A stretch of DNA of 38,446 nt from contig MEDY01000171.1 of the NCBI GenBank assembly GCA_001724265.1, positions 62,001 through 100,446 of the forward strand, written 5' to 3'. Below the pieces are notes generated by a model. The model was not told where the DNA came from. It saw only the letters and a list, made by a program, of their open reading frames with translations, and did not search any database. Origin of the DNA: Rhizaria sp. SCN 62-66 (Eukaryota). Both the position numbers and the translations under genes were made by a program. Below are positions 1,134-36,934 of this stretch, piece after piece (position 1 is the stretch's first letter; every line of letters begins with the position of its first letter).

Positions 1134-1446
1134 CGCTGGACACGCGAGGGACCTAGACTACTTCGAACACACAAGGAAGACCGCTGTTTAAGGATGCTTT
1201 AGATACATTTTATTATATTTTAAACACAGATACCTCGTAGAAGTTCAGAAACGGCTTTATCAACGATGAATATGCAGCGTGGCTCGGCTTTCAAAGCAGC
1301 GCCACGCTCAACGGATACTGCCTCCAAGCAAGCGAGCGAGCCAGCTGTGGCGGTTCGCAAAAAAAATATCCAGCAGCAGACTAGAGGAAGTAGCAATAGA
1401 GATTACTTTGTTGGCGTTATACACTGCGCAGAACCGTCATCTCGCG

Positions 1447-3352: not shown

Positions 3353-3968
3353 GCGACAATCGCGCATGTGCCAGCACGCCCAAAACATACAGCGACAACG
3401 TCGCTCCTCTCAAGAGAGCGCGCCAAGTCATGCAACTACTATCAGTCAGCCCCATATCTATTTCTGTCTGTTTATAAAGCTAATGGAGCGGTCCCAGAAC
3501 ACTCTTCACTCATTGGTTTGTCTTAATAAATACGAATAAGTTTTGCATTAACGTCGAGTTGTGTACTCATGACGGTTTTGATCAGATTGGATTTAACGTG
3601 ATTGGTGCGTTGCACTGATGAAAATCGTTTTTTGGCAGCAAGCCAAACCTTATTACCAGTCCCCTTCCAAAGCTATATCCACCTCGTGAACTCGTTATTT
3701 ATCTCTGCTGGTGGATTATGTTATGTGACATCTTTTTTTTGTATTAGTTCATTACTTGACATTATGATATACTTGCGTCTTCGATTGTAGTGCATCATTG
3801 TGTGCGTACGGCCACATCGCATTCCAAGCGGGTCGACGTGCTCAATTCTCCGCTTGTACGGTGGACATAACGAAAACAACAGGGGGGCTCCTTTTGCCCA
3901 TCCACTGACGCACTTATAAGGACACAAGCTTTTGGCGGCACTTGCGCCGGCCTTGTATATATCCTCCC

Positions 3969-6900
3969 ATGACACCACAGACACGTTGGTTGCCGTTTAC
4001 CAGTCTCCTTGTCCTGACAGTAATTGCTTTCTCGGCGTCGCTAGCCTCTGCAGGCGTGATCCCGGGCGAATGGTTTTGTCGCAGCACGACTTCGTCTACG
4101 GGGTACGATTCCTGCACCGCTGTGTGCCCCCCTGGCTGCTCGCCATACATGACTCGCGTGCTCGCGACCGAGCCCGTGTGCGTGGTTATGGGCGCGATCG
4201 TCGACTCGGAGCAAGCCGCGCTCTCCTGCGCCTCTACTCTGGTGTCGCCCGTCGAGCTCACGACGGCCAACTACGGCCAGACATGCATGTCCACGTCGCG
4301 CTGTTCGTACATCTGCGCGACGGTGGCGAGCGTCCTGGCCCGCGAGACCGACTCCAACGCCTCACTCATCGCTGCAGTTTGCACTGACCCCGAATCGCCT
4401 TCCTTGCTCGCGCTCGCCGCAACCGACCCGTCCGCTACTCTGGCCTCGGCCGCGACGACATGGCCTACGTGCGACGTGGCGTGCGGCGTGAGCGCCAAGC
4501 CGCGGCCCATCTACTGCGTCGACAGAACGCTCGTCACGCTGGGCCAGCCCTTCGCCGTCGCCTCGGGAGTGACGCTCGAGACTTGCGTTGTGGGCGTCGC
4601 CTCCGCGGGCGTTGCGCCGGCCGCCGCCAAGCTCTGCGTTGGCGTCAACTGCGCCGTGCGCCGCTGGGAGTGCTCGCTTCTCGCCGTCGCGCGCGCCGAC
4701 GCTGCCGCCGCAGCCGCGTACAACGCGTCGCTGCTCGACGCCGGCTACACGCCCTTCGCCGCCCCCGCGGCCGACGCCACCGAGAGTGAGATCGCGGCCC
4801 GCGCCGTCGCCGAGGCCGCCGCGGTGACCACCGGCGTGCTGGCGGGCGCCAACGCTGCGACTGGTGTGAACGACTGGGCCGACTGCGCCTTCACCTCAGT
4901 TGCGCTCTGGTAGGCGGCCTGCGACGCCGGCTGCGGCACCAGCACGCGCCGCCGCGTCGCGCGTTGTGTGCTCTCCAACGGGCTTTCCACGGGAAATGAC
5001 GACCCCTCCGCGGTGCGTCTGCTGCCGGTCTCGCCGCTCAGCGCGCGCGCAGTGCCCGGCACGCCCGCGCCCTCGGCGGCGCTGGCGCTATCCCCCTGCG
5101 CGCTCACATCCACGGTCCCTCTCACGTCGTCCAGCTGCACCGACTACACGAGCTGCGAGGACCCGCCGCAGTGGATGTGTGCGCCGCCCGCCTCGCTCGA
5201 CGGCGAGGACGAGAGCGCGGACGGCAGTGGCAGTGTGGCTGTCGTTCCTAGCGCGCTCATGTCGTGCGATTTCGCGCCGCTGTCGCCCGCGCTGCCGCCC
5301 GGCCCGCTCAACGGCGGCTTTCGCGCCTGCCCGGTCGTATCCGGGTGCATCTCCAGCAGCGTGGTGACGTACCGCAACGTCGACTGCTACCACCACGGCC
5401 AGCGCGTGTCTGCCGCGGCGTGTCTCGAGATGGCGCCGCGGCCCGTCTCGTCAACGCAGTGCGCACCCGCCGTGGACCGCTGCGTCATCACGTACCCCGC
5501 CAACGCGCCGTGCTACACGGCCACTGGCGGCACGGCGACCTGCCAGTTTATCTCTGGGACCACATCCACGTTCCTGTACCGCTACGCCTCGTGCGCGGAC
5601 CCTAACACGACGCTGACTCGGCCGGGCTCCTGGTGCTGGGGCGATGGCCCGACGCCGTTCGTGTATTGCAATGATCTTCCCGTATGCGGAGCCTACGACC
5701 CGGCCACGGGAGAGCGCGCGCCCGACCGCTACAAGTCGCGCTGGTCGACGTCGCTGGAGCCGGGAGACGGCGTGCTGAGCACATTTTCCGGCATCCCGCT
5801 TGTGAGCACTAACATCTCGGTCACCTACGGTCAGTGCGTATTCAGCATGACAACAACGTGTCGCTCACACATGTTTTCGCCTGCTTTCTGTGAGGTTGCC
5901 TTTGATCCCACTGAAGTGTCTACTTATCCTCCCGGCGTCTGGGCGCGCGCACCGCTGTCCATGTGCGACTTCGACACGGCGCCCCCGACTGTGGTGGCGT
6001 GCGAGTCCGGGGTCGGTCCTGACCCCGCCACGGCGTGCGGGGCTTACGGCCGCTGCGCGCTGTCTTCGGCCGTGTCGCCCGTCGACGGCCTGCTCTACGG
6101 AGGCTACTCGGGCACGTGCGTGTGCTCCACGGGCGCCTTCGGGACCTACTGCGACAAGACACGCGTCGTAGGCGCCGTCACCGCCACAGTAGTCGAGTCT
6201 GGCGCGTCGCTGCTCGTCACGTTCCGCTTCCTCGACGATACAGACATTGCGTCGCCAGTGGTCGCACCGCGCGTCGACAAAGTTGTAGTCACGCTCGAGG
6301 CCGTCGTTGCCTCGGCTACTGACGCTAACGGCGATGGTGATTACGTGACCGATTCTTCATTCCCGCTAATCTCACTGGGTACCTTTGCACCGTACCCGCT
6401 GTACGACCCCGGGACAGGCCGTGTCGTCTTTGTGACCTCGCTGTTGAGCGCAGACCGCGTCGTGCCGATTCCCGCGGGGCGCTACCGCGTGCGTGTGCGC
6501 GTGCCGACGCTTACCGCCTCGCCTGCGGGGCTTCAGACGGGCTTTGCTGACGTTTCACCCGTGGTCCTCATTCCAGAGGCCTGCGCGGGGCTCTGTGGCA
6601 ACGGCGGCGCGTGCGACGGCACCTCGGGCCACTGCGTGTGCGTCAACGGCTGGTCCGGGACTCAGTGCCAGGTGCCGCCGTGCGAGACTGCCGGCTGCAA
6701 TCCCCACGGCAGCCTCTGCGTCATGGACGCCGCTGCCCGGTTGCGTGTGTCGCCGATTTTGTTCCAGTTGGCTGAGTCTTCCGGGGTTGCCGTCGCGCGC
6801 TGTGTGTGCACAACGCACCCAGACACGGGCGCGCCGCTCTACACGGGCCCGAAGTGCATGACACCCGTGGCCAACTGCTCCCTCTTGCCCGCCTGTGCGA

Positions 6901-10981: not shown

Positions 10982-12903
10982 ATGCAGTTTGACCCCAACT
11001 CGGGGTATCCCGGGACGTGGACACACCCTGGGGTCACTCAACAAGCGTCCCCTTAGTTCAATCAGCAACACCAGCTCCAGCAGAGTGCCTACAACGCCCA
11101 ACAGTTCCAGCAGCTGTCCCAACAAGTTCCTACCCAGCAGCAATACCTCGTCAACAACCAATATGCTGCGCTGCAACAACATCAACAGCATCTTGCGCTA
11201 CCGCAGAGTCAGTTTTCTCAAGCTCCGAGTGCCTTCACTGGGGCTTCACCACAAGCCCCCCCAGCCTCGCCTCCGAGCACATCAGCGTCCCAACCACCCG
11301 CTGATGACGCCGGCACGGAGCGCATCCTGTATCTGAACCACTTAGCCGCGTCGCTGCGCACGCTGACGCTGTACGCCGGCATCCGCACGCTGCATGGCTT
11401 CCGCCTCAGTCTGCGCACGGCCAACGCCATGCGCGCGCGGCACCGCTCGCTCAACAACCCGACAGCGCCGGCACCGCTGCTGCTTTTCGTGACGCGCCAC
11501 CCGCACGCCGTGGCCGTGCTTGTGCCCGCCTCGCTGCGCCTGCGCTCGCTGCTCGCCTTCGCTGCGCCCTACGTGCAGCTAGGCGGCCGCTCCGTCGCCA
11601 CCTCAGCCGAGGACTGGCGCGTGTACCCGGCGCCGCTGAAACCCGCGCTGCCCGCCGCGGCACTGGACCGCTCGCTGGCCGAGCTCGCGCTGCCCTTTGG
11701 CGCCGTGCTCGACCTGCAGCCCGTGACTGCGCCCGCGGCGGCCGCGCGCACCGCCGCCGTCGCCGCGGGTGAGACGCTGATGCTGCGCTGCGAGCTCCAA
11801 GCACAAAAGGAAGCCTTCAACTTGCTCGCCTCGGCGCGCGCCTCGACCACCCCGACTGCCGTGGGCGAGGCCGTCTCCGTCGTGGCGCGCCGCCAGTACG
11901 CACAGCTCATGCGCCTATACGCCGGTGCCGGCGTCGCCGACCCAGAGCCCGACTCCGCCTCTTACTCCTCCAACAGCGGCGGCGAGGCGGCGGCAGAGCA
12001 GCCCGTCGCGGTGAGCGAGGTGCTGTTGGACCTGTTCCCGTTGCCGCCCGCCGTGGCGGCCGGACTCGATGCCGCCGCTGAAGAGCTTCTCTCTTCAGTC
12101 GCCGCCTGCGCCAGCGGTTTCGCGCCCCCGCTGTGCGTCCGCTGCCCCAAGCAGAAGGCCGTCTCATCGTCCCCGTGTGCCTGCCCCAGCAGCAACGGGA
12201 GCGGGCAGAGCGACGAGTACGACATCATGGAGTACATTTTCGAGACGCACCCCAACCAGGTCGCGGGCGCTAACGCCCACTGCGACCGCTGCGTCAACGG
12301 CCGCCGCCCCACAGCGCTCCTCATCTCGACCGCGCCAGAGCCGTCTCCAGTGTCGGCGTCAACACTAGCCCAAACAACGATGACGCAGACTCAGGCGGCT
12401 GCGCAGGGCAGTCCTCCCGCGCTGCGCACCGGCGCGAGCTAGACTCGTCCCCAGAAGCACAGCCACGGCAACGGCGATAGCAACGGCGACGGCGACTGTA
12501 GCGATGAAGATGAGAGCGAGGACGAGGACGACAGCGAGTTTGACTACTCGACCGACTCGGAGTCTGACTCGGCTGGTTCTCTCGCCACTGTCTCTGCTGC
12601 TGGTGCGCGCCCGCTTGCGCGCTTCAGCGCTCCTGCCAGCGCACAGAGCAGCGCGCACCACTGCCACCACGGTACCTGCGCGCACAGCACAGGTGCGAGC
12701 GTGAGTAAGCAGGCCGCCGCGGGGACCGCGTCAGCTTCCGCGTCAATGTCCGCGGCAACGTCTTCTGGTGCTAAGGGCAGCTTGAACGCCACCAGCGCCA
12801 AAAACGCCCCGTCCCAAGTTGCAAGCACGACTGCCGCCGCCAAATCTGGCGCCAAAGTCGGCAATAAGGCCACGGGCGGTAAGACTGCCACTGCGCCGGC
12901 TGG

Positions 12904-12955
<52 letters not shown>

Positions 12956-15916: not shown

Positions 15917-15993
<77 letters not shown>

Positions 15994-16114
15994 GCAGCAA
16001 CAACAGCATCACTTGTTGCATCAGCAAGCGCTGCAGCAACAGCAGCAAGCGTTGCAACAGCAACTGCAGCAGCAACAGCAACAACAATATGTGCAGCAGA
16101 AGCAGCTTCAACAA

Positions 16115-16171
<57 letters not shown>

Positions 16172-17152
16172 CAACAACTACAACTACAACAACTACTACA
16201 ACAACACCAACAACAACACCAACAACAACACCAACAACAACACCACCACCGCCAACAACAACACCAACAACAACACAACTGGCTCGAAATGTTGCAGCAA
16301 CAGCAGCAGCAGCAGCAGCAGCAGCAACATCAACAGCAACAATCCCCGACTCAAATTTCACTTGAGCAGTTGCAGAAGATGTACCCTAACTCCAGTATGC
16401 AGCAGCTTTTAATGCTTCAGGAGCAGCTCAACTTGCAGTCCCAGCTACAGAACACACTTGCGCTACAGAAGCAACAGCAGCATCAGCAGAATCAACAGCA
16501 GCAGCAGAAGCAGTTCCAAAATACGAACAATGCGCAGTCCTTCGTGCGCACGTCACAGGAGCAGCAGCTGCAACTTCTGATTCTGCAGGCTCAGGCGCAG
16601 GCGCAGGCTCAGGCTCAAGCTCAGGTTCAGGTCCAAAAACAGCAGCAGCAGCAGCAGCAGCAGTCGTCCGTGGACCTGAGTTACCTGGCCAACTCCATGG
16701 CCGCTCTCCAGAGCGCGGCTGCGCGGCATCAAAGCGCTGCGGCGCTGCAAAATCTTCAGGGCACCGGCTACGGCAATCTCGCTGCGCTGCAGTACCAATC
16801 TAATCCTGCCGCCGCTGCGGCGCAGCTTGGCTACGCGAATCCTGCCTCGTACACGGGCGCGCCGCTGGTCACTGCCGCTGGCGCGGGGGGCCCCCACAGT
16901 AACATCTCTGTGGCGGCTGCGGCCGCCGCTGCCGCTGCGGCGGCGATGGCGATGAGCAACAACCAGCTGCAACAGCAGAAGCAGCAACAGCAACAGCAAC
17001 AGCAGCAACAACAACAGCAGCAGCAACAGCAGCAGCAGCAGCAGCAGTATCAGCTTCAGCAACAGTACATTGCGCTGCAGCAGCTGCAACAACAACAGCA
17101 ACAACAACAGCAACAACAACAGACGCAACAACAACAGTTTTTCGGCTGGTAA
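10982..17152 (+). CDS. CCCH zinc-finger protein (paralogue A) with a putative ubiquitin-like domain and polyQ C-terminus, ~2056 aa, containing two in-frame TAG codons (11054, 12440)
   Basis: ATG 10982 (MQFDPNSGYPGTW...) is in frame with ORFs 11429-12442 and 12701-17152; only the two TAGs interrupt it. Fingers CEWFETCQHYGCPSLH and CAQRGRCRRWDCYFRH (C-x5-C-x4-C-x3-H). Ends QQQQFFGW-TAA. Confidence 0.82.
12905..12952 (+). repeat. (GCT)16 perfect trinucleotide repeat encoding poly-Ala
   Basis: Read directly from the sequence. Confidence 0.95.
15920..17137 (+). repeat. Multiple CAG/CAA polyglutamine tracts (densest at 15920-16342 and 16971-17137)
   Basis: Read directly from the sequence; in frame with paralogue A. 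Confidence 0.95.
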
Positions 17153-19774: not shown

Positions 19775-20200
19775 TTAATTGTTGTCGTTGTCCTTGCTGG
19801 CGGAGTCCTGCGAAGAGAAGTTAGTCATGCCCATGTTGGCGCCCATGCCCATGCTATTCATGCCCATATTATTCATGCCCATGCTGCCCATGCCCATGCC
19901 GCCCATGCCCATGCCCATGCCGCCCATGCCCATACCACCCATGCCCATGCCCATGCCGCTCATGCCTATGTTGTTGTTCATGCCCTGCTGCTGCATCTGC
20001 TGAAACTGCTGCTGCGCCATGAGCTGCATGTAGTACATCTGTTGCTGGTATTGCTGCTGCTGTTGCTGCATCATGAAGTTGAACATCGCCGTCGCGTCGG
20101 CCGAGCCCGCGTTGGCGCCCTCACCCGAGCCAGACCCGTCGCCGGAGGCGGCCTGCTGGGCGGCCAGCTGCTGCTGCATCATGAGCATCTGCTGATGTAA

Positions 20201-20231
<31 letters not shown>

Positions 20232-21004
20232 ATGTAGTTGAACAGCGAAGAGGGATCCGTCGTCGCCGCGCCCACGCCCGCGCCCATGCCCATGCCGCCC
20301 ATGCTGGAGTAGCCCATCGCGCCGCCGCTGCTAGACGCTGAGGGCGAGGTCATTGCGCCAGCGCCCGCGGAGGAGCCGCTGCCCGAGGCGTTGCCGTTGG
20401 CGTCCGCAGCGCCCGGGGCCGAGTCATGCGAGGGCGCGTTGCTGAGGCCGAGGCCCATGCCGCCACCCATGCCCATGCCCGCGGAACCCATGCCCATGCC
20501 CAGGCCCACGCCCATGCTGGCGCCGCCGAGGCCGAGGCCGCTAGCGCCGCCGAGCCCGCCCATACCGTCCAGCGCGCTCGAGGCGCCAAGGCCGCCCATG
20601 CCGAGGCCGGAAGACGAGGAGCCCAGCCCGCCGCCCATGCCGAGGCCGCTGGACGCACCGAGGCCGCCCATGCCGCCGCTGCCGCCCATGCCGCCGCTGC
20701 CGCCGAGGCCGCTCGCGGGGGAGCCCAGAGCGCCCATACCCCCGAGGCCGGAGGACGCACCGAGCCCGCCGCCGGAGCCAGAGGCGGGCGCGCTGGTGAG
20801 GCCGACGCTCATGCCAGAGGACCCCAGGCCCATGCCCATGCCGCCGGCGCCGCCGAGCCCGCTGCTGCCGCCGCCGAGGCCGCCCATGCCGCCCAGGCCG
20901 CCGCCCATGCCGCTGAGGCCGCCGGGGGCGTTGGAGGTCGAGTCTTGCGATGATGCGTTGCCGAGGCCGAGACTGGGAGGGGAGCCGAGGCCGCCCATGC
21001 CCAG

Positions 21005-21035
<31 letters not shown>

Positions 21036-24000
21036 CTGCCCAGACCGCCGGCGGCGCCACCGAGGCCGCCCGCGCCGCTGAGGCCGAGCCCGCTGGCGCC
21101 GCCGAGGCCGCCGGCGCTGCTGAGGCCGCCCATGCCCATGCCCATGCCGCCGAGCGCGCCGAACCCCGCGGGCGCGCCGGGCAACGTCTGCAGAGATAGC
21201 GCGCCCAGGCCTAACCCCACGGTCATTCCCAGCCCTGACGGCGAGTCCTGTGGGACGGAGAAGCCCAGCGGAGGCGCGCGCGCGGCCGGCGTCGCGGTCG
21301 TCGTCGCCGCCGCGGCGGGCGAGAGCGCGCTGGCGTCGCCGCCACCGTTGCTGTTGCTGTTGAGGGGCGCGGGCGTGACGTCGTGCATGTCGAGCACGAG
21401 AGGTGTGGAGCCCCACCGTGCGCTGTAGTCGTCCGCGCCGCCCGCGCCCGGGATCGGCGACGCCACAGCCGCCGCCGCCGCCGCCGCCGCGGAAAAGGCC
21501 TTGCCGACGGGCGGCTTCCCGGCCGCCGCGCCGTTTGCGCTCGCGGCGGCCTTGGAAGTCTCCGCACTCTTGGCCGCGGTGGCGGAGGCGGCGGCGGCCT
21601 TGATGCGCTCGTTGCGCGCGGTGATACGCGCCAACTCCTCGCGCTGGCGCTCCTGGCGGCGCAGCGAGTCGGCAATGTACTCGTCGCGCATCGTCGCGTA
21701 GTCGCCCGCAGACAGCCCCAGGCCCTCGAGCGACGCGATCGCCTCCCGCGCCTCGTCGTCCAGGTCCTCCTCGGCAGCAGCCGCCGCGGCCGCAGCAGCG
21801 GGGGAGGCGACAGCGGCGGTAGCGGCGGCGGCAGAGCCGTTCTTACCCGCGGCGGCGGCGGCCTTGCCCTGCGCAGCGCCAGCGGCGGCGGACTTGTTGG
21901 CGGCGCGCTGCGCGTTGACGGCGGCGAGCGCGGCGGCGGCGCTGACGGGCGCGGCCGCGGCGGCGGTGCGGTGGCCCTCGATGACGGCCTCGTCGTCGCT
22001 GTCGCTGGCCGGGGCCGGGGCCGGCGCGGCGGGCTTGGGCGCGGGCGGCGGTACGCGCACCTTGACGCCGCCGCGTCCGGGCGCGAAGATGCGGTTGTAG
22101 TACTCCTCGAAGCCCGCCGGGACCGTGGGTGGCGTGCGCGGCGCGGTGTGCTTGAAGTAGCAGTCCCACTTGGTGCAGTTGGGGCCCGTGCGGCAGTCGA
22201 TGCCGCGCATGCACTCCAGGAAGCTGTTCGGGTGCACCATCTTGCACGTCGACATCTGTTGTGCACAACAACACGACAAAAAAAAAAAAACAATTAAAAA
22301 AAGCGGTGGCAAAATGAATGGTAATGTGTGAGCGGCAATTGGGGAATAATCGAGCAAAATAAAAACACAGTCACCGAGTCAAGAACATTACAAAAAGCGT
22401 ATTCGGCAATGAATTTAGATGCTTCCCAACGTACATTGAAGCAGTTGGCGCCCTGGGGGCAGTCGCGCGGGCGGCGCTCGGAGTGGATGGCGGGGCAGCG
22501 GTAGTGCTTGCACATGTCCGGGTAGTCGCACTTGTCGTGGAGCGTAAAGCGCGCCAGGTGCGCGTCGGTGGGCCCGCGGTGGCCGGGGAACGACATCGGG
22601 TCATGCGAACCCTTGGCGGTGAAGTTGGCATCGCCGGGGTGCAGGCCGGGCGTCGAGGACCACTTGGCGGCCTCCTTCTTCGCACCCGCGCCAGCGCCCG
22701 CGCCAGCCTTGCCCAGCTGCTGCTTCGCACCCGCGGTCGCATTGTTGTTGCTGCTGCTGTTGCTGCTGCTGTTGCTGTCGGCCGCGTTCACGGCGTCCGC
22801 GCCGTAGGCGATGCCGAACTTTTGCGAGAATTTCTCGCGCGTGATGCGCGCAATAGTTTCCTTGTCCGTCATGGCGCCCGCGGCGGGGGCCTTGCCGGGC
22901 GTGGCCATGAGCTGGCGGTACGCCGCGAGCGTCACCTCCTCGGCGGCCGAGGGGAAGAGCTCGATGATGTCGAACTGCTCGAGCGCCGTCGCGGTCAGCT
23001 TCACCGACAAGGGCGCCAGCACCACGCCCGTGCGCGCGATCTTGGCCGTGTAGTTGTGCACGTGCGCACGCGGCGCGAAGAAGCCGGCCTGCTTGGCGAG
23101 CGCAAACACGTCGTCGAGCGAGGAGCTGGCGCGGACAAACACGCCCATCATGAAGAGGTCGAAGCGCAGGTATAGCGCCAGCCCCTGCAGAGTCAGCCCC
23201 TGCGACTGCAGCATCAGCGCAGCGCGGCGCTTCCATTCGCCGGGCTGCGCCGCGACCTTGGCCTCGACCGTGGCCGCGGCCAGCAGCATCGGTGCGCTAC
23301 CGCCGCCCATGGCCGTGTCGCTGCGGAAGCCCGCGGCGGAGGCGCGCGAGCGCAGCTCGTTCGTCGTCACGGTCGCCTCGAGCTCGTTGTAGGCGTTAGA
23401 GATGCGCAGCACCTGGTTCGCGGTCGACGCAGACAGAGCCGACGCAAACGCCGCGGGCTTCGCGGCGGCGGAGCTAGCACCGGCGCCGGCGGCAGCGCCT
23501 GCAGCAGCGGAATTGTTATTGTTATTGTTATTGTTATTGCTATTGTTGTTGCTGTTGTTGTTGTTGTTGTTGTTGTTGTTTGCGGGCGCGTAGGAGCCGG
23601 ACCAAATGGCAGTCCTCTCGCGCTTGTGCATGCCCTTAGGATCGTGGATGCGACCGCAGCCGTTGACGGGGCACTCGGGGTTCCAGCACGTGAGCGGGCG
23701 GCGCTGCGGGTGTCCGTAGACGCAGTTGTACGAGATGCAGTCCGCGCCGAACTTGCACGTGCCCACGTCGGTCGACACGCAGCGCGTAGGGCCCAGCCCC
23801 GGCAGGTGGATGCCGCGGCACATCGGCTCCGAGCACACCTTTGGTGGGACCAGGCCGCTGGTGGGGCACAGCGAGCGGCGCGTGAGCGGGTGCGCGTTGG
23901 GGCAAAAATAGGCGATGCACTGCTGGCCGTTGGCACACTGCGTCTTGTTGGTCAGCTGACCACCAACGGGAATGGAGCCCGCGGCCATGGCGCGGAGATT

Positions 24001-24489
24001 AGCAGGGAGAACGTTGGTCTTTCCTTCGCGGATCATAGTCTCAAAATCACCACGGACGCGCGCGAGGATAGGCTGCGCAATTGAGACATTGGCAACACGC
24101 TTGGACTTGATCTTGTGCTTCTCCGTGATCTTGTGATCCATGGAGAGCAGAACCTCACGTACAGGAACCTTGCCCGGAATCAAGCGATTCCCGTCCGAAT
24201 GGAAACCAAGCTGAGCCATAAAGGCAAAGAAGCCGTAAGAGTACCTCATCGAGTAAAACTGGTTTTGCTGGCTCGAGAAGGGAATGGGAACAAACTTCTT
24301 AGAGGCAGCGCCACACTCATACAGGTCACGAACGATAGAGGATAAAGAGTCCGTCACCTCACTGAAGTTATCAGGAGCTTCGATACGCATCTCGTCAAGA
24401 GCGGAATCCGCGTCAGGAAGCAGGATATTGAGCATCTCAGGTGAGAGCTTGAAGGCAGCGACGGAGTGTTCACCAGTCGCGGACGACAT
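19775..24489 (-). CDS. CCCH zinc-finger protein (paralogue B) with ~7 fingers, putative PUB-like and ubiquitin-like domains and a Gly/Met/Gln-rich C-terminus; exons 24489-22435 and 22255-19775, ~1511 aa (start uncertain)
   Basis: Fingers CANGQQCIAYFCPNAH, CKFGADCISYNCVYGH, CDYPDMCKHYRCPAIH, CPQGANCFN|MSTCKMVH (restored by splicing) and CRTGPNCTKWDCYFKH, plus two more degenerate ones. Ends in TAA. Confidence 0.85.
19825..21150 (-). repeat. GGCATG (Gly-Met) and GGLGG-type degenerate repeats with interspersed polyQ
   Basis: Tandem CCCATG / GAGGCCGCC units on the + strand, in frame in paralogue B. Confidence 0.9.
22256..22434 (-). other. Spliceosomal intron (179 nt, phase 0) within a zinc finger of paralogue B
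   Basis: Minus strand GTACGT...poly-T...CAACAG; removal restores C-x5-C-x5-C-x3-H. Confidence 0.9.
23512..23580 (-). repeat. AAC/AAT poly-Asn tract
   Basis: (GTT)n/(GTTATT)n on the + strand, in frame in paralogue B. Confidence 0.9.
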
Positions 24490-25124
24490 AATAAGAGCTA
24501 GAGACAGAGAAAAAGAACACATTCAGAGAGACTGTAAGATGCAGAACGAAGATCTAACGAATACATACAGATCTCCCTCCAATACTGCTGTGCAAGGACG
24601 CCCACGGCAATCTTCGCCTATTTGATGTGGGTCCCGACGCCACCACATGGCCAAGCTAACCACATGAAACAGCATCTCGAAATCCAGCGATCAATAAAAC
24701 ACATGACACAAAGAAAATAAAGCTCCAAGACATCTACATGCACTAACACCCAACAAACAAGTTTATACGCGCACAATCCCGTCTCCAATGAACGCCTCGA
24801 CTGACTGCGAAAACAGATCGACGAACAATGAATCGAACTAAAAGGATTACTTATGCTCGGCTATTCAGGCGAGCAGGCGACGGGCCAACTTTGGGGCCCA
24901 GAAGAAAGAACCTTTCGTGGGCTTTCTCATCATTAATTTTGCATAATTATTGCGTTATGACATAAAAGCATACGTAATTGTATGTTTCATTCTTTTTCAC
25001 ACTCATATTCGTCAGGAGTGTTTCACGAGAGCTGCTTGCGCAACTTCACCATCTCATCACGCCGTTTGCCCCCCCTCCCTTGCTATTTTGATCGCGCCAC
25101 AGCGTATCAAGACGCGCCCAGAAA

Positions 25125-27143
25125 ATGAGTGCTGCTTCGGGCACGCCATTTAAGGTGTCCGTAGGCACCTTTATGCTTTTCTTTATCCCGAGCCTGTTTA
25201 TTAACATGCTGCTGGCGACCACACTTGCGGCTGCATTCGCAGCTCACATTGCGCATCGCGTCATGTCGCGTCCGCCCCCGCTGCCGCCCGCAAACGTGGG
25301 CAAGCGCGTTGATATCACGCGCGACGGCTTTTTGGAGTCCAAGCTTCCTGCGCGTGTTGACGCTATTGTGATTGGCTCCGGTGTGGGCTCGCTCTACACG
25401 GCCGCGTTCCTCGCGAAGCAGGGCAAGGCTGTCGTCGTGCTTGAGCAGCACTATATCGCCGGCGGCGCCACGCACGCTTTTGAGGAGAGCGGCTTCGAGT
25501 ACGACACGGGCGTGCACATTGTGAACAACCCCCTGATTGCGAGCAAGCTCATGGCACCCGTCGCGGCCGAGGAGGTCAAGTGGTGCATCATGGGCAATGA
25601 GGCCGACGGGTACACCCACGAGCGCCTTCTGCTCGGCAAAGACATGGACTTCCCGTGCCGCAAGAGCACCGTGTTTGCGGACATGAAGGCGGCGTTTCCG
25701 GCCGATGCGGACAACATCCAGCGCCTGCGCCGCATCGTTGACGAGTCGCAGATCGTGCTGGGCCTCGACCTCTTCTGCAAGACGCTTCCTAAGTGCGTCT
25801 GGCGCTTCGTCAAGAACTGCCTCATCCCCGACTCGTGGTGGCGCCACATCGAGCGCTCGGGCGCCGAGTTGGTGTCGGAATACGCGTCGGACAAGAAGCT
25901 CCAGGCGCTGCTGCTGGCGCGGTACGGCGACATGGGCGGCCCGCCGTCGCAGGTAGCCATGTCGCTCAACCCCGCCATCGCGGAGGCCTTCGCGCAGGAC
26001 GGCGGCGGCTACCCCATCGGCGGCCCGGGCGTCTTTGCGCGCGCGCTGATCCCGACCATTGAGGCCGCGGGCGGCCGCGTGCTGGTGCGCGCGTCGGTGG
26101 AGAAGATCCTGCTCGAGGGACTCGAGAACGTGCCCGCGGGCGAGGCCGACGACGCCGAAGTCGCCGCCGACGCCGAGACGCGCATCGCCGCCGTGCGCCG
26201 CGCGGGCAGCGGTGCCGTCAACACGCTACTGCGCCTTGTCGGGCTGGGCAAGAGCGCGGCGCCGCGCGCCGTGGGCGTGCGCGTCAAGGGCAAGGACATC
26301 TACGCTCCGCTCGTCATCTCGGGCGCGGGCGCGTGGAACACCTACGCACGCTTGCTGCCGCGCGCGCTGGTCAAGCCGTGGGGTTTCTTGGAGCACATGC
26401 GCACCGCGCAGCCGTCGGTGTCGCACGTGTACGCCTTCGTGGGGCTGCGCGGTGACCAAGACGAGCTCCAGCTGCCCTCGGCCAACTTCTGGCACATGGA
26501 CGTGTCCGCGCCTGACTACGACGTGCAGAAGGCGGCCGAGGCCTTCTTCAAGGATCCGCTGCGCGGCCCCGTGTGCTGCTTCTTCGGCTTCCCCTCGGCC
26601 AAGGACCCGACGTACGCGGACCGCAACCCGGGCAAGTCGAACTGCCTGTGCTTCGCCGAGACGAGCCTCGAGGCCTTCGCCCTGTTCGAGGACGCGCAGG
26701 GCAAGGCCTCGGGCCGCCGCGGCGCCGAGTACGAGGCATACAAGCGCGAAGTTGGCTAGCGCATGGTGGACAAGATGCTGGAGCGGTTCCCGCAGCTGCG
26801 CGACCGGATCGAGACGGTGGACTTCGCGACCCCCTTCACCAACCAGCACTTCCTCAACGCCGCGCACGGCGAGTCGCTCGGCATCCGCTGCAACCCGTAC
26901 CGCCTCTCGCACAACGGCATGGACTTTTTGCGGCCCGCGACACCGGTTGAGGGGCTCTACCTCACGGGGCAGGACGCCGCCATCCCTGGCGTGTTCGGCG
27001 CCATGGTCGGCGGGCTGCTCTGCGGCCAGGTCGTCACGGACCTGCCCGACGCCATCGCCAGCGCGGGCTTTGTCTCGCGCCTCCCCGCGACATACATCGA
27101 CATGATGCGCCACTTTGTCTCCTCCAAGAAGAGCGTCGTCTAA
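25125..27143 (+). CDS. RETSAT: All-trans-retinol 13,14-reductase (retinol saturase)/CrtI-family FAD oxidoreductase, ~672 aa, containing one in-frame TAG (26757)
   Basis: Hydrophobic N-terminus, then the Rossmann motif DAIVIGSGVGSLYTAAFLAKQGKAVVVLEQHYIAGGATHAF...YDTGVH, GGGYPIGG and FPSAKDP. After the TAG come the family C-terminal motifs FPQL, TPFTNQHFL and RPATPVEGLYLTGQD...GVFGAMVGG. Ends in TAA. Confidence 0.9.
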
Positions 27144-28575
27144 ATATAGATCTGGCGCCCTCTATAAGAATAGCATCGCCTCACGCAGCAATATGCGACT
27201 TGCACGCACGGAATGGGATCTATGTCTTTTATCTCTCTTTTTTTGGTGATATTTTATTGACATTTGTGCTGCCATTGTCGCTTTCTTTTTCTTCTTTTGT
27301 AAACGTGTGTTGTTTTCTTCAACTTGAATCACTCCTTCGATCATATTGTGCCTTCTTAGTCATCTCTTCGTCAAGCATCTTCATTTTGACTACTCTACGT
27401 GTAATAATCTCTTTTTTATATTCATGACTCCATATCTTTGTTTGTTCATCTTTGTGTTGTGCTGTGTCTTGTTGCATCTCATCGTCTCTTGCAAACGCAC
27501 TCTGACTCACAGCAACACTCCATGGCGACTAGTCATCATGCTCAGCGTGGGTACCCGCACATGCACTGGTTTTAAGTCACAAATCTTACAGCGACGTGTG
27601 TAGCATCGAGCACACATCGTTGTATATACTGCCGAAGAAAGTTGACGTTTTTCGTGTTTGATCTTTTATCACCTGTTTCTTTTGGTCCGATCGCCTTCGT
27701 CTTTGTGTCACTAGTCGCATTGCGGACGCATTAATAACCCACAACTGAAAACCGACGTTCGTGTAAGCGAGCTGCAAAATTGCAAGTCGACTACATGGTT
27801 CAGCCGCACTTAATACATTATTTAATCGCTATTTTATCATCTGATGGCCTTTCTTCAAAGTTGAACGATGCGCGATATCACCTGTCGAAGCGCACGACAG
27901 AACACCGCGGCACCTGCGACCCCGCTCTCGACGTCGATGGCGACTCTTCTCACATCGTTCTCGCAGTGAAATGTCCGTCGTTTAGACATGCGGTGGTACT
28001 ATCTTGATGTACTAATGACTTTTGTTTACACACTTAAAATTAAACGTGCTAAGTCTTCGTTTAGACTGCACAAGACGAGTTTGAAAGACGTTTGAATCTG
28101 GTCGTTAAGCTTGCTCCGACTAGGGAGCATTAATCCGGCCCAGCCTTCGCAACTTGGCAGACATACGAGGCTTACTTATGTTATCATTTATGCACGACTA
28201 CGATTTAGTTGGATATGTTGTTTTAATAACGAGCTGTGCTTTTATTGCGCCGATTCATTGGAGGTGCGGCTACGCGCCTTCTTCACGCCGCCCTTGTTGT
28301 TATCTTTCCTAGCTTCGATGCATGGAGAAATGAAGTAGAATGTTTGTAATTTCACGTGCTTCAATTAACTCGCTTTGTAACGAATTTACTTTATTCACCT
28401 TTTGCTTGTACGCCCGCCTCTCAAAGCTGCAGCCAGCTTTACCAGTCGGTACCCTCAGCGCGCTTTCCTACTTTTACCAGCGCACAGTTTTCTGTTGCGC
28501 CTCCTTGCCACTGCTCTTGCTCCGACTCGTGCACACGCCTCTTGATTTTTTGTCAGTGCTGCTTGCTCTGGTGTA

Positions 28576-31500
28576 ATGGTTGGAGCGAAAAAGCGCCGTG
28601 AGCGCGCACTCGCCGTAGCCGCGCTCCACACTAACCGTCCGTTTCCTTTCTAAATTCACACGTTCCGCCTCACTTTGCCATCTTCGCTCGTTACGACTCT
28701 GACCTGCTGTCTCTGGGCGTTCTCTCCTTGGCTTACCACATTTTTTTTCTCTCCGATCTTCTTGTATCCCCGCACGCCCGCGTACAGGCTCGTCGTGCCC
28801 GCACCTGAGCCGCTTCCTGGCGCTGCCCCGCGCGCAGGCCTACCTCGTCGCGCTCGTCGTCCGCGCTGCCGTCGCCGCACACCTCCGCCGCGCGCCCGCG
28901 TCACCTGCGCCCGCTGCTGGCACGCCCGCCGTTGCAGGCGCGCTCACCGTGGGCGCTGCTGGCGCAGACTCGGACTCCGAAGCTGACGCAGACGCCGCAG
29001 GCGCGTGCTGCGACTGCTTCTGCGGCGGCGACGACAGCGGTAGCTCCGGTTGCGCTGCTGGCCTGGGCAGCGACGACATGCCCTCGCTTGAGGAGCTCTA
29101 CAGCGTCCGCTCCAAGCGCGCGCGCGCCGCCGCACCTGCCTCTTCGGCCTCAGTCTCCGCCTCCTCTGTCTCCGCCTCAGGCTCTGCCTCTGGCTCTGCC
29201 TCTGGCTCTGCCTGTGGTTCTGCCTCTGTTCCAGTGCACTCGCACGCGCACGCGCCGTGGCGTCCGCGCTGGAGCTCGTGCCCCGCCGCGCCCTTCCCTG
29301 TGCCGCTGCCCAGTGGCGCTGCCACATGCCCCACTGCCAGTGCTAGCGCGAGCGCGAGCGAGAGCGCAACCGTCGTCCAGTTCCCCTTCGCCGTGCCCGC
29401 CTCGGCGGTGCCCTGGCGCGCGCTGCTGTGTCCCTCCGACGCCGCCACAGACGGCTTTGCGGACACGGGCGCCAAGGACTCCTCGGTGGCTGCTGCGGGC
29501 ACCTCTGCTGCAGACACGGAGAGCGCGCGTGAGGCGCTCTTGACCCACTTCACTGCCACGGCCGCGACCGATAGCGAGGCCGCTACTGGGACGTTCACGC
29601 CTGAGGTGCTGCGCCACGCGAACCCGCTGGACCTGGCCACCACCGCGGCCGTCGCCGCCGCCGTTGCCGTCGCCTCCGCGCCGCGCGCCCGTCCCGGCGC
29701 CGGCGCCACTGTGGGCACGCGTGGGTCCTGCGGCGCTGCGGCCAAGGAGGCGTGGGCAGCGGCCAACGCGGCCTTCTTTGCGCCCGTGGTCGCCGCGCTC
29801 AAGGCCGGCTCGGCCGCTGCCGCTGATTCCGCCTCAAATGCGGCTGCGGCGCCTTTGTTGTCGCACACCTCGGCGTTGGCGCCAGCGTCGGCGTCCGCTG
29901 CCGGCCGTGAGGGCTGGGCGCTGGACCAGATGCTCAGCTTCCAGACACACCACGCCCGCCGCGCGCGCCGCCTCGGCCGCGTCGGTGCCAGCTCCGCGAA
30001 CCCGCGCAAGCGCGCCGCGCCTTCGAGCTCCGCCGCGGGCGCCGATACAGGCGCGAGTACTGGAGCACCTAGGTGCGGGCGTGGCGTGATGGTGGACGCG
30101 CACGTGTGCCTCGAGTGCACGGCCCCGCTCTCGCGCCTTTCCGCCGCGGGCGCCGCGCCGCCTCCCGCCCCTTCCGCCGCTGACGCGTCTGAAGCCCCTG
30201 CCGCTGATGGCGCTGCATCGCCGCAGTGCGCGTCGCCGCTGCCGCGGTACTTCGGCGCCGCGCACGATCCGCTCTCGGCGCATACGGCGGCCACGGGCCA
30301 CTGCCTCTCGTTGCGCCTCGGCACGCGTGTTGGTGCAGGCCGCACCGGCGCTGGCGCTGACACTGGTGCAAGTACGCGCCGCGGCCCCCGCGGCAACAAC
30401 AGTTGTGGTGGGAACGCGCCGCCGCCGGCGGTGGCGGTGCACTGCGCGGTGTGCAACGACTGCGTGTACGCGACCGTGGTGGAGAGCCTGCTCTCGCGCA
30501 CCGCAGCGCTGGTCGCGGCCGCCGCCGCCACCGTCGCGCCGCTGCCCGCCGTGGCCGCCGCGCTGGCGAGCCCCGCGGCAGTGGCCCGTGACTGCGCGCG
30601 CATCGCGGACGTCTTCGCCGCCGCCGCCAGCGCGCCCCCCGCGGCGCCCGCGCCCGACCCAGCGCGGTCCTTCTACGCGCTGCCGGTGCCGCCCGCGGTC
30701 GCTGCCGCGGCCACCGCTGCCGCCGCCGCGCGCGCCGCCTTTGAGGCCGGCGCCACGCCGCCCGCGCCGCCCGTCGCCGACGCCGCGGCGGACGGGGCTG
30801 GCACGCCGTGGGGCGCGCTAGACGCGCTGCTGAGCTCGCCTGCGCCGGACACGGCCGCCGACGCCGGCGCGCTCGTCGCGCTGACCGTCACCGTGCTCTC
30901 CGCCGCCGCGGCTGCCGCGGCCGCCGCCTCCGCCGCGGACGCCGCGGACGGCGCGGCCGAGGTGAAGCTTGAGCGCGTGGGCGCGTCGCCGACCAAGCGG
31001 ACCGTCGCTGCGGGCGCGCTGCCGGCCGGGTCCTTCGCGGGTCTCTTTGCGCCTGCGCTTCTGGCGCCCGCGCCTGCGCCCATCCCAGCGTTTGTGCACG
31101 CGTCTGGGTCTGTGGGGACGAAACTGCAGCCCTCCAGCGGCGGGACCGCGCAGCTGCAGCAGTCGGCGCTTGCGCAGCAGCAGCAGGACACGGCGCTGGC
31201 GACCGCGACGGCGGCCGCTGGGGCCGCAGCGGCGTCCTCCGCGTCCGCGGCGGCCGCGCCGTTTGGCCTGCCCGAGCTGGCGGGGCTGCGCGGGATCCTG
31301 AACCTGGGCGCGACGTGCTACCTCTCGGTCGTGCTGCAGGCGCTCACGCACACGCGCCCGCTCGCCACGCACCTGCTCGCGCATCCCGCCGTCGCCGCCG
31401 CCGAGGCCTGCTCCGCCGCGGCCACCACCGTCGCAGACTCGGTTGCTGGCGGCAGCGACAGCGGCTGCGGCGGTGGCGCCGAGCTCCCGCTGCTACCGCA

Positions 31501-34500
31501 CTCGCGCCGTGCGTGCGTGATCGCGCGCCGCAAGGCGAACCGGTTGCCCGTGGCGCCGCCCGCGCCCGCAACCGCGAAAAGTGCTGCGCAGGAGTCCGAC
31601 AGCAGCACTGGTAGCGGCAGCAGCAGCGACGCGGACGACGTGATCGCGCACTCGTTCTTCGGCACGCCGTTGTCGGCGCCGCTGCCGCTGCTCGCGCCGC
31701 CCGTGCGCGGGCCCGCCGCGCTGCAGACGCTGCTCGCGCCGCCCGACCGCGCCGTGGGTGGCGCGATCCGCGGCGGTGACACGCACGGCGCCGCGTCCTC
31801 GCGCTTGCGCCGCGCGCTCGCGCTCGCCATCCGCGCGCAAGCTGTTGCCGATGGCGCAGCAGCGGACGAGGCGCACGTGCCCGTGTGTCCTGCGCCCTCA
31901 CCCGCCGCGACGCTCGCCTCTGCGACGACCGCGGGGCTGTCCTTCGGCGCCGCGGGGGACTCGATGAGTCTCACCGGCGCCTCGTCCGGCGGAGCGTCCT
32001 CTGCCCCCGTGGCCGCCGGTGACGTTGCGCCCAACCACGGCCCGCTCGTGGCGCAGGCCCAGGCGCAGACGCAGGCGATGCTTACCGCGACCGGGACCGC
32101 GAACGCCGCGGTCGCCGCTGCCGTCGCGGCCACAAGCCCCGTCTCAGCGACTGGCGCGGCCGTGCGCGCGGTCGCCGCCAGCGCGGGCTATATGGACCCA
32201 GCGGTCGCGGCCACGCTGCTGACGGCCCTGGCCGCGCCGCCGCCCGCACCCGCGGCCGCGCTGCCGTGGCTCGCGGCCGGGATGCAGCCCAGTGACGGCG
32301 GCTCCTCCGCGGCCGCGGTCCGCCGCGCCGGCGCCGCCGTCGCCGCCGCGGCCTCCGCGCTCAACGCGGCCGCCTTCGCCGGGGGCAGCGGGACCAGCGC
32401 TGCCTGGTTCACTGCCGGTGCGCCTGGCGTGGCCAACGGCACCGCGGGCACGGCCGGTGTCAGCGCCGCGACCGGCTCCCTCGGCACCACCTTGGCAGGC
32501 GCAAGCATGACTGGCGGCCTGCTCGCGGCTGACGGGGCGGTGCCGCTGTACGACGACGACAACGGCGCCGACGTGCACAGCCTGACGTCGTCGCTGTCCG
32601 AGCTGGCGCCGTGTCTGGCGTGCGAACTCGAGTCCGTTGTCTCGGCGATGCACTCGGGCGACGCGTACCCGCTGCCGCCGGCCGCCACGGTCTACGCGCT
32701 GTGGCAGAACTCGTACGAGCTCGCGGGCTACGGCCAGCACGACGCGCACGAGTGCCTGCTCGCCTTCATGGGCAACGTGCACTCGTCGACGCTGGCCGCC
32801 AATGCCGTCGTCGCCATGGCCGCCGCGGCTCAGATTGCGCAGACCGCAGAGCCACCCGCCTGCGGCGCGGCTGCTAACGGCGCGGACGCGTGTGGCGCAG
32901 ACGCCGCCTGCGCGAGCCATGCGACGAGTCACGCGGCAAGCCACGCCGCTGCGCTGACCGCGCTCGCGCCACCAGCGCCGGCGGGGACCTCGGCCGCGAA
33001 CGCCAAGGACCTAGACTGCTGCATCATGCACCGTGTCTTCGGCAACGCCGTCGCGGGCGAGACGCTGTGCGTCAGCTGCGGCCACGTCTCCACGGCGCTC
33101 GAGTCGGGCGTCGACTTGGGCCTCACCATCCCACCCCCGGAGCTGCTCCCGATGCCGCCCACACCGCCCTCGACCGCAGCCGGCAGCGGCGGCACGGGCC
33201 TTGCCGCGGACGCCGCCACCGTAGTCGGCGCAGACGCGCTTGTGGGACCCGGCGCATGCGGTGCCGACGGCGCCACCAGCTCTCAATGTGCAGGCGCCCC
33301 CGCGGTCTCTGCGGCTGACGGCAACAACGCGATGTGGCTCTCAATCGAGTCTGCTTTGGCGGACGCGGCCGCAGCGCCCAGTGGCAACGCCAGAGCGAGA
33401 GCCAGAGCGAAGGCGGCTGCCGTGGCCGCGGGTATTGACCTTGCCGACGACACCGACAACGACGACACGACTGGAGAGGGCGAGACGGGCACCGACGCCG
33501 ACGCCGACGGCGAGGGAGAGGAAAGCATGGGCACAGGCACCGTGACGCCGAACAACGAGGACGAGGAAGAGGACGAAAACGACGACGGCGACGGCGACGG
33601 CGACACCGACGCTGACGCCGACCGGACGGGCGCCACGCCCGCCGACGACGAAGACGGCGAGGTGGATAGCGAGCCCTTCACTGGCACTGACGACAACGGC
33701 GACATGTTCACCATCGCGACAGGTGCATCCGCCGCCGCTGACGGCAGCGCGCTGACTGGCGACGCCGGCGCTGCGGGGGCTCTCGACCCCGCCTTGGCAG
33801 CCGCGACGAGCGGGGACACGCTGGCCATCGGCGGACGCGGCGGCTGGCGCGGGCGCGGGCGTGGGCGCGGCGGCCGGGGCCGGGGCCGTGGCCGTGGTCG
33901 CGGCCGCGGTCGTGGTGGCCGTGGTGGCATCACGCGTGGGGACGCAGACAACGCCTCGGGCATCTCGGCCACTGCCGCCGCGGCCGCCGCCCGTGCCGCC
34001 GCGGCCGCCGCGCGCGCGGCCGCGCATCAGCGACTGTACCGGCTGGTGCCGCTGGAGGAGTGTCTGGCCCGCTTCACCGAAGCCTCGTACCTCGGCGCGC
34101 AGCAGCTGCTGCGCTGCGACGGCTGCCAAGCGTTGTCTCCGTGCGTGCGCCGGAGCGCGCTGGCCGTGGCGCCGCGCGTGCTGTGTCTGCAGCTGAAGCG
34201 CTTCGACTTCGGCAAGGCCTCGCGCACGGGCCGCGCCCTGGCGTCGCCGATGAAGCTGAGCACGCCGGTCGCGTTCCCGCTGCGCGGGCTCGACATGGCG
34301 CCCTTCCTCAGCGTCAACCAGCGCGCCATCGCCGACTCTAAGGACGCCGCAGTGCAGCGCTGGGAGGCCGCCAACGCCAAGGACCCGGACACCAGAGCGG
34401 CCGCGGCGGCCGCGCTTGCGGCGGCTGCCCACAGTGCTAAGCCTGGCTCTGCGGCTTTGTTGCAGCCGTCCGTGGCGGCACCGCTCTTGTACGATCTGTA

Positions 34501-34849
34501 CGCCGTGGTTGTGCACATCGGCAGCATGAGCTCGGGCCACTACATTGCGTACGTGCGTAAGGGCCCCTTCTGGTTCCTGTGCAACGACGCCTTTGTGCTG
34601 CCCGTCTCCGAGGCCGCTGTCGCCACCGCCGAAGCCTACCTCCTCTTCTACGAGCGCCGCGCAGCCTCTACCGCCGCGGCCGACGCTGCGGCTGCTTGCG
34701 CGCGCGACACCCACGCGGTCAAGCAAGAAGCCTTTGGTGCCGCCGCTCATACCGACATTGCAGCGGCAGCAGCTGCAGTACGCGTTGACGCAGACAACAT
34801 CCTTAGCAGCATTAGCAGCATTAAAGCTGAGTCCCCAACGTACTTTTAA
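28576..34849 (+). CDS. USP22: USP22/Ubp8-like ubiquitin-specific protease (ZnF-UBP plus peptidase C19) with very large low-complexity insertions; exons 28576-28597 and 28788-34849, ~2027 aa
   Basis: Spliced N-terminus MVGAKKRRSSCPHL. Dispersed ZnF-UBP elements (CPHL, HVCLEC, HTAATGH, VHCAVCNDCVY). Cys box GLRGILNLGATCYLSVVLQAL, then CLACE, LAGYGQHDAHE, CIMHRVFG, LEECLARFT, LQLKRF, His box YDLYAVVVHIGSMSSGHYIAYVR and WFLCND. Ends in TAA. Confidence 0.9.
28598..28787 (+). other. Probable spliceosomal intron (190 nt, phase 1) after a 22-nt first coding exon
   Basis: GTGAGC...pyrimidine-rich...GTACAG; splicing puts ATG 28576 in frame with the USP ORF. Confidence 0.75.
33836..33927 (+). repeat. 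RG/RGG repeat (GRGGWRGRGRGRGGRGRGRGRGRGRGGRGG) inside the USP domain
   Basis: Read directly from the translation. Confidence 0.9.
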
Positions 34850-36501: not shown

Positions 36502-36934
36502 TCTGCTCCGGAAGAAATCGGGTAAAGCAATCATTTGTGAGAAAATCCCAGGATGTTTTTCATTAAAAAAACGAGCGCATTTAACACATACTTAAGCGCG
36601 CACACGACTTTACGATGACTACACAGATATCTAGTGCTTCTCTCGGACCCTCTTTTGTCTCTTGCTCGGGCTCAAGCTCGACAAACCACAAACGAGTTTT
36701 CTCGACGTTTCGCGTGTCTGCAGAAAGCAAGCGAGTTTAAACTGCCAATTAGACTCGACTACTGCCGTGTATAGCGACTTTTGTTGATATCTCGTGTTAT
36801 TTTCTATTATTTCAACAATGAATTAACTATGATGTGCTCAATGGCGCACCTAATCTCGTCGTGTCTACGTACAAATCTTGCTTACCATCCCTCCATTGAA
36901 ATGGATCTACATTCGTGTTGTTTCAGGTATCCAC

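Follow-up and report, generated by a model that had tools for sequence, protein, structure and literature searches.

The stretch of DNA considered here, hereafter the window, comprises 38,446 nucleotides of contig MEDY01000171.1 (positions 62,001 to 100,446, forward strand) from the assembly deposited as Rhizaria sp. SCN 62-66 (GCA_001724265.1), and it carries a frame for a retinol-saturase-like flavin adenine dinucleotide (FAD) oxidoreductase that contains an in-frame TAG at codon 545. This TAG is one site of a genome-wide reassignment of UAG, in which the codon probably specifies glutamate (Glu). The features of the frame, in window positions, are as follows.

25125..27143, + strand: retinol-saturase-like FAD oxidoreductase frame of the CrtI superfamily, intron-free, 672 codons with UAG as sense (homologues, NAD_binding_8)
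25359..25529, + strand: N-terminal Rossmann dinucleotide-binding motif, residues 79-135 (family match)
26757..26759, + strand: in-frame TAG, codon 545, an amino acid, with Glu more likely than glutamine (Gln) (homologue column)
26952..27002, + strand: conserved C-terminal motif, residues 610-626 (homologue alignment), lost if the TAG terminates
27141..27143, + strand: true terminator TAA; the DNA beyond it is non-coding and AT-richer

The TAG is in frame with the ATG at 25125, whose role as the start methionine is not certain, and the flanking peptide matches that quoted in a preliminary description of the window. That description had estimated that termination would cost some 127 residues, including a GLYLTGQD-type motif; 127 codons indeed follow before the TAA, and the motif lies downstream at residues 610-626, near-invariant among homologues (G615, D617 and G622 each in 119 of 120, G625 in 112 and A626 in 108). 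This motif may contact FAD; matched by itself against CrtI 4DGK, the C-terminal part gives a weak result (E 19). Searches found 860 homologues, the nearest at 71%, 58% and 59% identity, many of them annotated at source as all-trans-retinol 13,14-reductase, and NAD_binding_8 matches residues 82-135. The protein shares with the RETSAT/CrtI superfamily the N-terminal Rossmann motif, the conserved C-terminal motif and full-length similarity, and differs in its NCBIfam crtI_fam score of 91 bits, below the cut-off of 238 bits, and in a lineage-specific insertion at residues ~335-380 (window ~26127-26265, + strand) that is of variable length in the homologues P0002-P0004. The predicted product is a full-length retinol-saturase-like oxidoreductase, its substrate and activity being taken from annotation names.

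In an alignment of the 120 homologues listed (of the 860 found), the column at the TAG holds E43, Q26, D20, K7, A6, R5, G4, N3, T3 and H2 with one gap, and Leu, Trp, Tyr and Phe occur in none of the 120. The preliminary description had anticipated a column usually occupied by E, Q, D or K and had favored Gln or Glu over Leu, Trp or Tyr; both expectations are borne out, and the log-odds of a hidden Markov model (E 1.9, Q 1.8, L -2.5, Y -1.9 and W -2.5 bits) and the genome-wide sites agree. A polar residue is well founded here; Glu and Gln are inseparable at this column, the family favoring the former and its two nearest members the latter. The rank of strongest single site, which the same description had accorded to this TAG, is better given to evidence outside the window, as a TAG in the gene for the release factor eRF1 and a transfer RNA (tRNA) gene of Glu type with anticodon CUA both weigh more.

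Beyond codon 545 the alignment continues over residues 546-640 in 119 of the 120 homologues. The columns flanking the codon are gap-free and colinear through the TAG, which is therefore not removed as part of an intron. Over residues 546-640, the two nearest homologues are 75% and 69% identical to the protein, compared with 75% and 63% over residues 79-544, and the GC content of third codon positions is 0.914 before the TAG and 0.945 after it, coding-type codon use persisting throughout. A pseudogene is disfavored. A contig from the DNA run X2 covers 26714-28824 and agrees at the TAG; as X2 is possibly the source sample itself, it does not count as an independent witness. Elsewhere, X2 departs from the window by 30 extra letters at 10134/10135 and by single bases at 10386 and 28369, which are either strain differences or assembly errors. 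A metagenome scan for DNA of relatives returned two loci, one (L181) identical to window 26803-27914, which begins 3' of the TAG, and one (L182) a distant fragment.

The assembly (G000; 34.9 Mb in 714 contigs) is eukaryotic, with spliceosomal introns. We sampled 710,297 bases of it with a codon-bias heuristic and made 14 family or protein searches; about 2.7% of the 34.9 Mb genome, plus the family match tables, is covered. TAG accounts for 38 of 153,434 trimmed coding codons (~0.025%, or ~1 in 4,000), as against 5,422 GAG and 5,450 CAG. Gene ends, taken in the sampled stretches and the window as heuristic coding-to-non-coding transitions rather than from an annotation, comprise 32 TAA, 20 TGA and one TAG (n=53), and the lone TAG lies inside a CAG run, which leaves none among 52 real ends (P ~3e-6 if TAG were used in proportion to its non-coding frequency). 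Coding sequence followed TAG nine times (at least one a shadow frame) and never followed TAA or TGA; 17 cases were ambiguous. Thirteen in-exon TAGs lie within recognisable conserved domains, one of them in the eRF1 gene, and the base at +4 after them shows no bias (C5, A3, T3, G2). Programmed stop-codon read-through was rejected on the mid-domain placement of these TAGs and the unbiased +4 base at the 13 sites.

In the searches for DEAD, kinesin, ABC, myosin, Ras, AAA, dynein N2 and dynein AAA1 domains no in-exon TAG was found, the flagged TAGs being intron acceptors. The kinase search flagged 11 of 142 rows, five of them in exons, and two further rows flagged later were intron acceptors. Inspection covered the flagged rows apart from three UCH and two SNF2 rows with mixed stops and all those flagged with TAA or TGA only. 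A public protein record (P0363), identical to the product of a PARP-type zinc-finger gene (L077:8900-9073, + strand), stops exactly before that gene's TAG; it may come from the same genome, and it is an example of truncation by standard-code gene calls. We regard it as very nearly certain that UAG is a sense codon in this genome.

Some incidental features of the TAG-bearing genes deserve mention. Three kinase genes (L175, L176, L177) form a recently expanded, divergent family, with in-exon TAGs in two of the three. AT-richer genes (L167, L190, L191, L083) seem richer in TAG than the average. An AT-richer frame of ~1,200 codons (L201/L191; G000:C681, ~1-3600, + strand) has an internal repeat, ubiquitin and peptidase S74 domains and two in-frame TAGs, and adjoins an ordinary host gene.

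A family search recovered one eRF1 gene and one pelota-like gene. The sole eRF1 gene found carries an in-frame TAG in its N (stop-recognition) domain (G000:C63:103463-103465; L033:1981-1983, - strand), at a column that holds E105, D10, V1 and no Q in 116 homologues. Were this TAG a stop, the cell would be without release factor; no other single argument for a sense UAG is as strong. The same protein has the changes Thr32Ser (in the GTS motif), Gly57Ser and Leu124Met, each seen in none of the 116 homologues; Thr32 is present in all 116, among them the nearest (84% identity). Since the homologue P0125 still has Thr32, its replacement may be recent. According to the literature, Thr32 forms a bond with the third-position G of UAG, and Iotanema has Gly in its place (PMC5304391), the standard-code relatives of Iotanema retain GTS (PMC9161772), and the change at Thr32 has been tied to the loss of UAG recognition in that organism (PMC5304391, PMC9161772). 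By analogy, Thr32Ser may act like the Thr32 change of Iotanema.

A pattern search revealed a tRNA gene with anticodon CUA (G000:C84:76008-76080, - strand; L119:1500-1572, - strand; Rfam 58 bits), in an ordinary nuclear contig with a T run 3' of it and eukaryotic genes on both sides. ARAGORN found no other CUA tRNA among the 12 matches of this first pattern, and a broader second pattern gave no further one among 10 more matches (two repeats from the first pattern excepted). The tRNA folds as a standard cloverleaf with an anticodon stem of five pairs, a D loop with GG, a TTC loop and no long variable arm. The pairs U1-A72, C2-G71 and C3-G70 are shared by tRNA-CUA and the two Glu tRNAs of the genome and are absent from the other genomic tRNAs compared; A46 and a 4-base variable loop are likewise common to the three. 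The Gln tRNAs have G1-C72, G2-C71 and U73, and tRNA-Asp differs from tRNA-CUA at 3:70 and 38. Identity was counted at anchored positions, in place of global pairwise values that are unreliable for dissimilar pairs, and of 63 positions tRNA-CUA shares 43 with Glu(CTC), 35 with Glu(TTC), 35 with His, 33 with Asp, and 28 and 24 with the Gln tRNAs. All six viral-contig tRNAs with the D-arm/T-arm pattern of tRNA-CUA are tRNA-Glu, the likeness being by construction and the isotype not; the exact pattern had no match in prokaryote genomes. The D arm resembles bacterial or phage-type tRNA-Glu more than it does the Glu tRNAs of this genome, and the acceptor stem is of genome type. The tRNA may be old or imported. 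Decoding as pyrrolysine was rejected, with no search aimed at pyl genes, as the 'Pyl' label given by ARAGORN reflects the anticodon alone and the architecture, unlike that of tRNA-Pyl, is a standard cloverleaf.

It is reasonable to propose, on this basis, that UAG alone has been reassigned from stop to Glu, that UAA and UGA stay terminators, and that the TAG at 26757 would be one of the rare sense UAGs. The tRNA-CUA would be transcribed by RNA polymerase III and charged by glutamyl-tRNA synthetase; its C34 should be unable to pair with the A of UAA, which would leave UAA unaffected, and the eRF1 changes would weaken the reading of the third-position G of UAG. The rarity of TAG is what would be expected from a single tRNA gene and mutational input from GAG and CAG. 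With UAG as Glu, TAG would arise from GAG by synonymous transversion and from CAG by frequent transition at tolerant sites, giving mixed contexts; with UAG as Gln, most sites would be expected to derive from CAG and few to lie in acidic columns.

Eight candidate residues were scored at 11 sites (five of our own alignments and six Pfam scores); the remaining two of the 13 domain sites, in the L174 kinase and a USP5-like protein, fall in an insertion and in a poor alignment, respectively. The summed score places E ahead of Q by 2.8 bits, K by 4.5, D by 4.8, S by 11.6, Y by 22.5, L by 27.0 and W by 30.8. The UBE2J1 (L107) column holds D50, N25, H14, S12, T12, E6, G1 and Q0 (n=120), and that of a SUV3-like protein (L206) E10, S8, D5, N3 and Q3 (40 of 80 bacterial loci anchorable). 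Close paralogues of the L176 kinase have Asp at the TAG site, which was counted for Glu, and the zf-PARP column is neutral (K24, E21, D19, S14, Q12 and A12; n=144). Acidic tracts hold 4 of 38 TAGs, 567 of 6306 Glu codons (9%) and 99 of 6524 Gln codons (1.5%). Structure searches with PTEN_C2 and L096 gave no matches at the thresholds used, and an EF-hand/TAG pattern was discarded as out of frame by one base, its 6 matches being meaningless.

A number of observations weigh against Glu, or against parts of the argument that lead to it. The difference from Gln is small, the five deep alignments giving 2.0 bits with eRF1 and 0.3 without it. The two nearest retinol-saturase homologues (P0002/P0003) carry Q at the TAG column, which might itself be a TAG translated as Q by a gene caller; at the eRF1 column, Val stands in the homologue nearest to this eRF1. 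In a ubiquitin-domain copy TAG replaces CAG (27 synonymous and 7 non-synonymous differences), human NEK1 has Q at the L169 site, and 4 of 38 TAGs lie inside poly-Q; a flank-composition score prefers Q over E by 35 bits, confounded by CAG mutation in poly-Q. Intron-bearing or unusual CUA tRNAs could escape the patterns, and Rfam scored 63 of 506 candidates. A review table has no entry of tested identity elements for the Glu and Gln tRNAs of eukaryotes, and bacterial Gln is marked by U1-A72 with G73 (PMC9976931). Given this, and since E. coli charges Gln onto amber suppressors that have other tRNA bodies (PMC9976931), the tRNA argument is a comparative one and not proven. Thr32Ser retains the hydroxyl, and its effect is not obvious. 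Last, none of the RNA contigs listed (contigs only, one study) bridges the TAG at 26757: run X1 matches several parts of the window exactly, the pieces listed all lying clear of the TAG, and run X3 contains next to nothing.

The alternative that survives best is that UAG means Gln, as in codes of the Iotanema/Hartmannula type, either because the tRNA-CUA is charged by glutaminyl-tRNA synthetase through its anticodon or because a Gln-type CUA tRNA was missed. It would account for the Q of the nearest homologues and of NEK1, for the ubiquitin copy, which is under purifying selection, and for the TAGs in poly-Q runs; suppressors without a Gln body do accept Gln in E. coli (PMC9976931), and Gln is the commonest eukaryotic outcome (PMC11687900). 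It sits badly with the absence of Q from the TAG columns of all 116 eRF1 and 120 UBE2J1 homologues, with a tRNA body that is nearest to Glu and has the Gln tRNAs among its most distant counterparts, with an enrichment of TAG in acidic tracts about equal to that of Glu codons, with the 2.8 bits in favor of E, and with two patterns able to catch a one-base mutant of tRNA-Gln(CTG) that found none. The score, the acidic sites and the tRNA body together lead us to hold Glu, with UAA and UGA as stops, as the probable meaning of UAG, and Gln as an unlikely one.

Somewhat less likely again is a UAG in transit, inserted as a mixture of Glu and Gln or read by a tRNA-CUA that competes with an eRF1 still terminating part of the time. 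The Glu-like behavior of TAG in acidic tracts and its Gln-like behavior in poly-Q would fit, as would its great rarity (38 of 153,434 codons; flagged in none of 20 ABC, 21 AAA and 12 dynein N2 matches), the one tRNA gene found and the mildness of Thr32Ser. Against this, mutation from CAG and GAG yields mixed contexts under a single meaning, no TAG gene end was found, eRF1 itself requires read-through, and no read-through context lies 3' of the TAGs. The standard code, with this TAG a nonsense mutation in a pseudogene, an assembly error, or a codon bypassed by splicing or RNA editing, is very improbable: the missing RNA bridge, a sole confirming DNA contig that may be the source sample and the many flagged TAGs that were intron acceptors would suit it, but conservation and codon bias are undiminished after the TAG, the alignment is colinear, twelve further TAGs lie inside domains (one in the sole eRF1 gene found), TAA and TGA are never followed by coding sequence in the stretches sampled, none of 52 ends is TAG and a cognate tRNA is present. 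Leu, Ser, Tyr, Trp, Lys, Asp or pyrrolysine can be set aside with hardly any reserve, for although ARAGORN's label names pyrrolysine, UAG=Leu is known in a rhizarian (PMC5304391) and Asp and Lys trail Glu by less than 5 bits, L, Y, W and S are behind by 12-31 bits, and the tRNA is a standard cloverleaf without a long variable arm and unlike tRNA-Asp at 3:70 and 38.

With UAG as Glu, a fuller scenario may be envisaged, which we consider unlikely as a whole: an early-stage code in a GC-rich flagellate, with UAA and UGA as stops, in which a Glu-type tRNA-CUA, old or imported, is set against an eRF1 that terminates weakly at UAG (Thr32Ser). The UAG in the eRF1 N domain would make synthesis of the release factor dependent on read-through, closing a negative feedback loop. 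The autoregulation of bacterial RF2 is a comparable loop. We put at 5-10% the probability that a gene of 435 codons contains a TAG, and the placement in eRF1 is accordingly suggestive only.

Four more in-frame TAGs lie in the window.

4911..4913, + strand: in-frame TAG in a long Cys-rich membrane-protein frame (3942-9818); no family match, uninformative on the residue
9075..9077, + strand: second in-frame TAG of frame 3942-9818, which could also be that frame's end
11054..11056, + strand: in-frame TAG of frame 10964-17152, in its Gln-rich opening stretch
12440..12442, + strand: second in-frame TAG of frame 10964-17152, in a region of low complexity

The low-complexity protein of the last frame (10964-17152, +) and its neighbors (19775-22357, -, and 22294-24522, -) have repeated Cys/His motifs in common that look like CCCH zinc fingers; Pfam gave no match. 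Elsewhere, a beta-hexosaminidase (GH20) extends over two frames (1279-3352, +), an intron probably splitting the gene; a ubiquitin C-terminal hydrolase that carries Ala-rich insertions of great length (28949-34849, +) and a tRNA m1G methyltransferase (35161-36534, -) have no in-frame TAG.

As to the host itself, family searches of the assembly found ~11 dynein heavy chains, from which it is probably a flagellate. Its 18S gene (L036:1501-5945) is divergent and AT-rich, with four group I introns; the first insertion has an open reading frame with motifs that we take to be of His-Cys-box type. An RNA run recorded as activated sludge contains exact pieces of the window (one study). Ubiquitin monomers (L189, L192, L193, L198) start MSMQIF, and stand-alone copies have a short tail after GG; a polyubiquitin junction pattern had no match in the assembly, in which several ubiquitin copies are cut by contig ends. 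By eye, some eRF1 residues are common with Guttulinopsis and exLh (PMC5304391, supplement 6). These residues and the MSMQIF start are weak hints of a place within Rhizaria. If the host is a rhizarian of sainouroid kind and the scenario above holds, two meanings of UAG, Leu and Glu, would exist in one clade.

UAA and UAG nearly always change meaning together, and the codes in which UAG alone has changed are few in kind: it is Leu in the rhizarian exLh and three ciliate (phyllopharyngean) metagenome-assembled genomes (PMC5304391, PMC11687900), Gln in Iotanema, Hartmannula and Trochilia (PMC5304391, PMC11687900) and Ser in Scotinosphaera (PMC11687900). As in exLh, the phyllopharyngean genomes, Hartmannula, Trochilia and Scotinosphaera (PMC5304391, PMC11687900), a CUA tRNA here decouples UAG from UAA; the Leu and Ser codes differ from the present one, where those residues are rejected by 27 and 12 bits and the tRNA is without a long variable arm. 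As Glu, UAG is on record only where UAA has been reassigned too, in PL0344 (PMC10553269), peritrichs (PMC11687900) and Blastocrithidia (PMC12153298). The literature searched, which lacks most subscription journals, showed no code with UAG=Glu in which UAA and UGA both stay stops; if the reading is right, this would be a new nuclear code table, and were the residue Gln, it would still be a new, independent UAG-only reassignment. Codes in which TAG is so rare would escape routine annotation, as the P0363 record that ends at its TAG illustrates.

Oligohymenophorea sp. PL0344 (UAG=Glu, UAA=Lys, UGA stop) likewise reads UAG with a Glu-derived tRNA-CUA; its 10 genes are 69-93% identical to tRNA-Glu (PMC10553269), compared with 43 of 63 aligned positions (68%) here. 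PL0344 is, however, a ciliate with UAA as sense, abundant UAG and 10 such tRNA genes (PMC10553269), whereas the present genome ends its genes most often with UAA, has very few TAG codons and yielded one such tRNA gene. Peritrichs and Blastocrithidia (UAR=Glu) share Glu at UAG (PMC11687900, PMC12153298), and Blastocrithidia also has a tRNA-Glu(CUA) and avoids its reassigned codons in abundant proteins (PMC12153298). In these organisms UAA is Glu as well, and Blastocrithidia reads UGA as Trp under AT pressure (PMC11687900, PMC12153298); here the coding DNA is GC-rich and both UAA and UGA are kept as stops. A sense UAA of the UAR=Glu or PL0344 type was rejected for this genome, TAA being the commonest terminator and never followed by coding sequence in the stretches sampled. 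The closest parallel is Iotanema spirale (UAG=Gln; UAA and UGA stop), with which the genome shares a reassignment of UAG only, UAA as the main stop and an eRF1 altered at Thr32 (PMC5304391, PMC9161772); the change there is Thr32Gly (PMC5304391), whereas here it is Thr32Ser, a Glu-type tRNA gene was found and the residue is more likely Glu. The presence of such a tRNA gene and of an eRF1 altered at the same Thr32 in one genome makes it testable how eRF1 drops UAG and keeps UAA. The code of this genome resembles that of Iotanema in its working and is probably a new variant, with glutamate.

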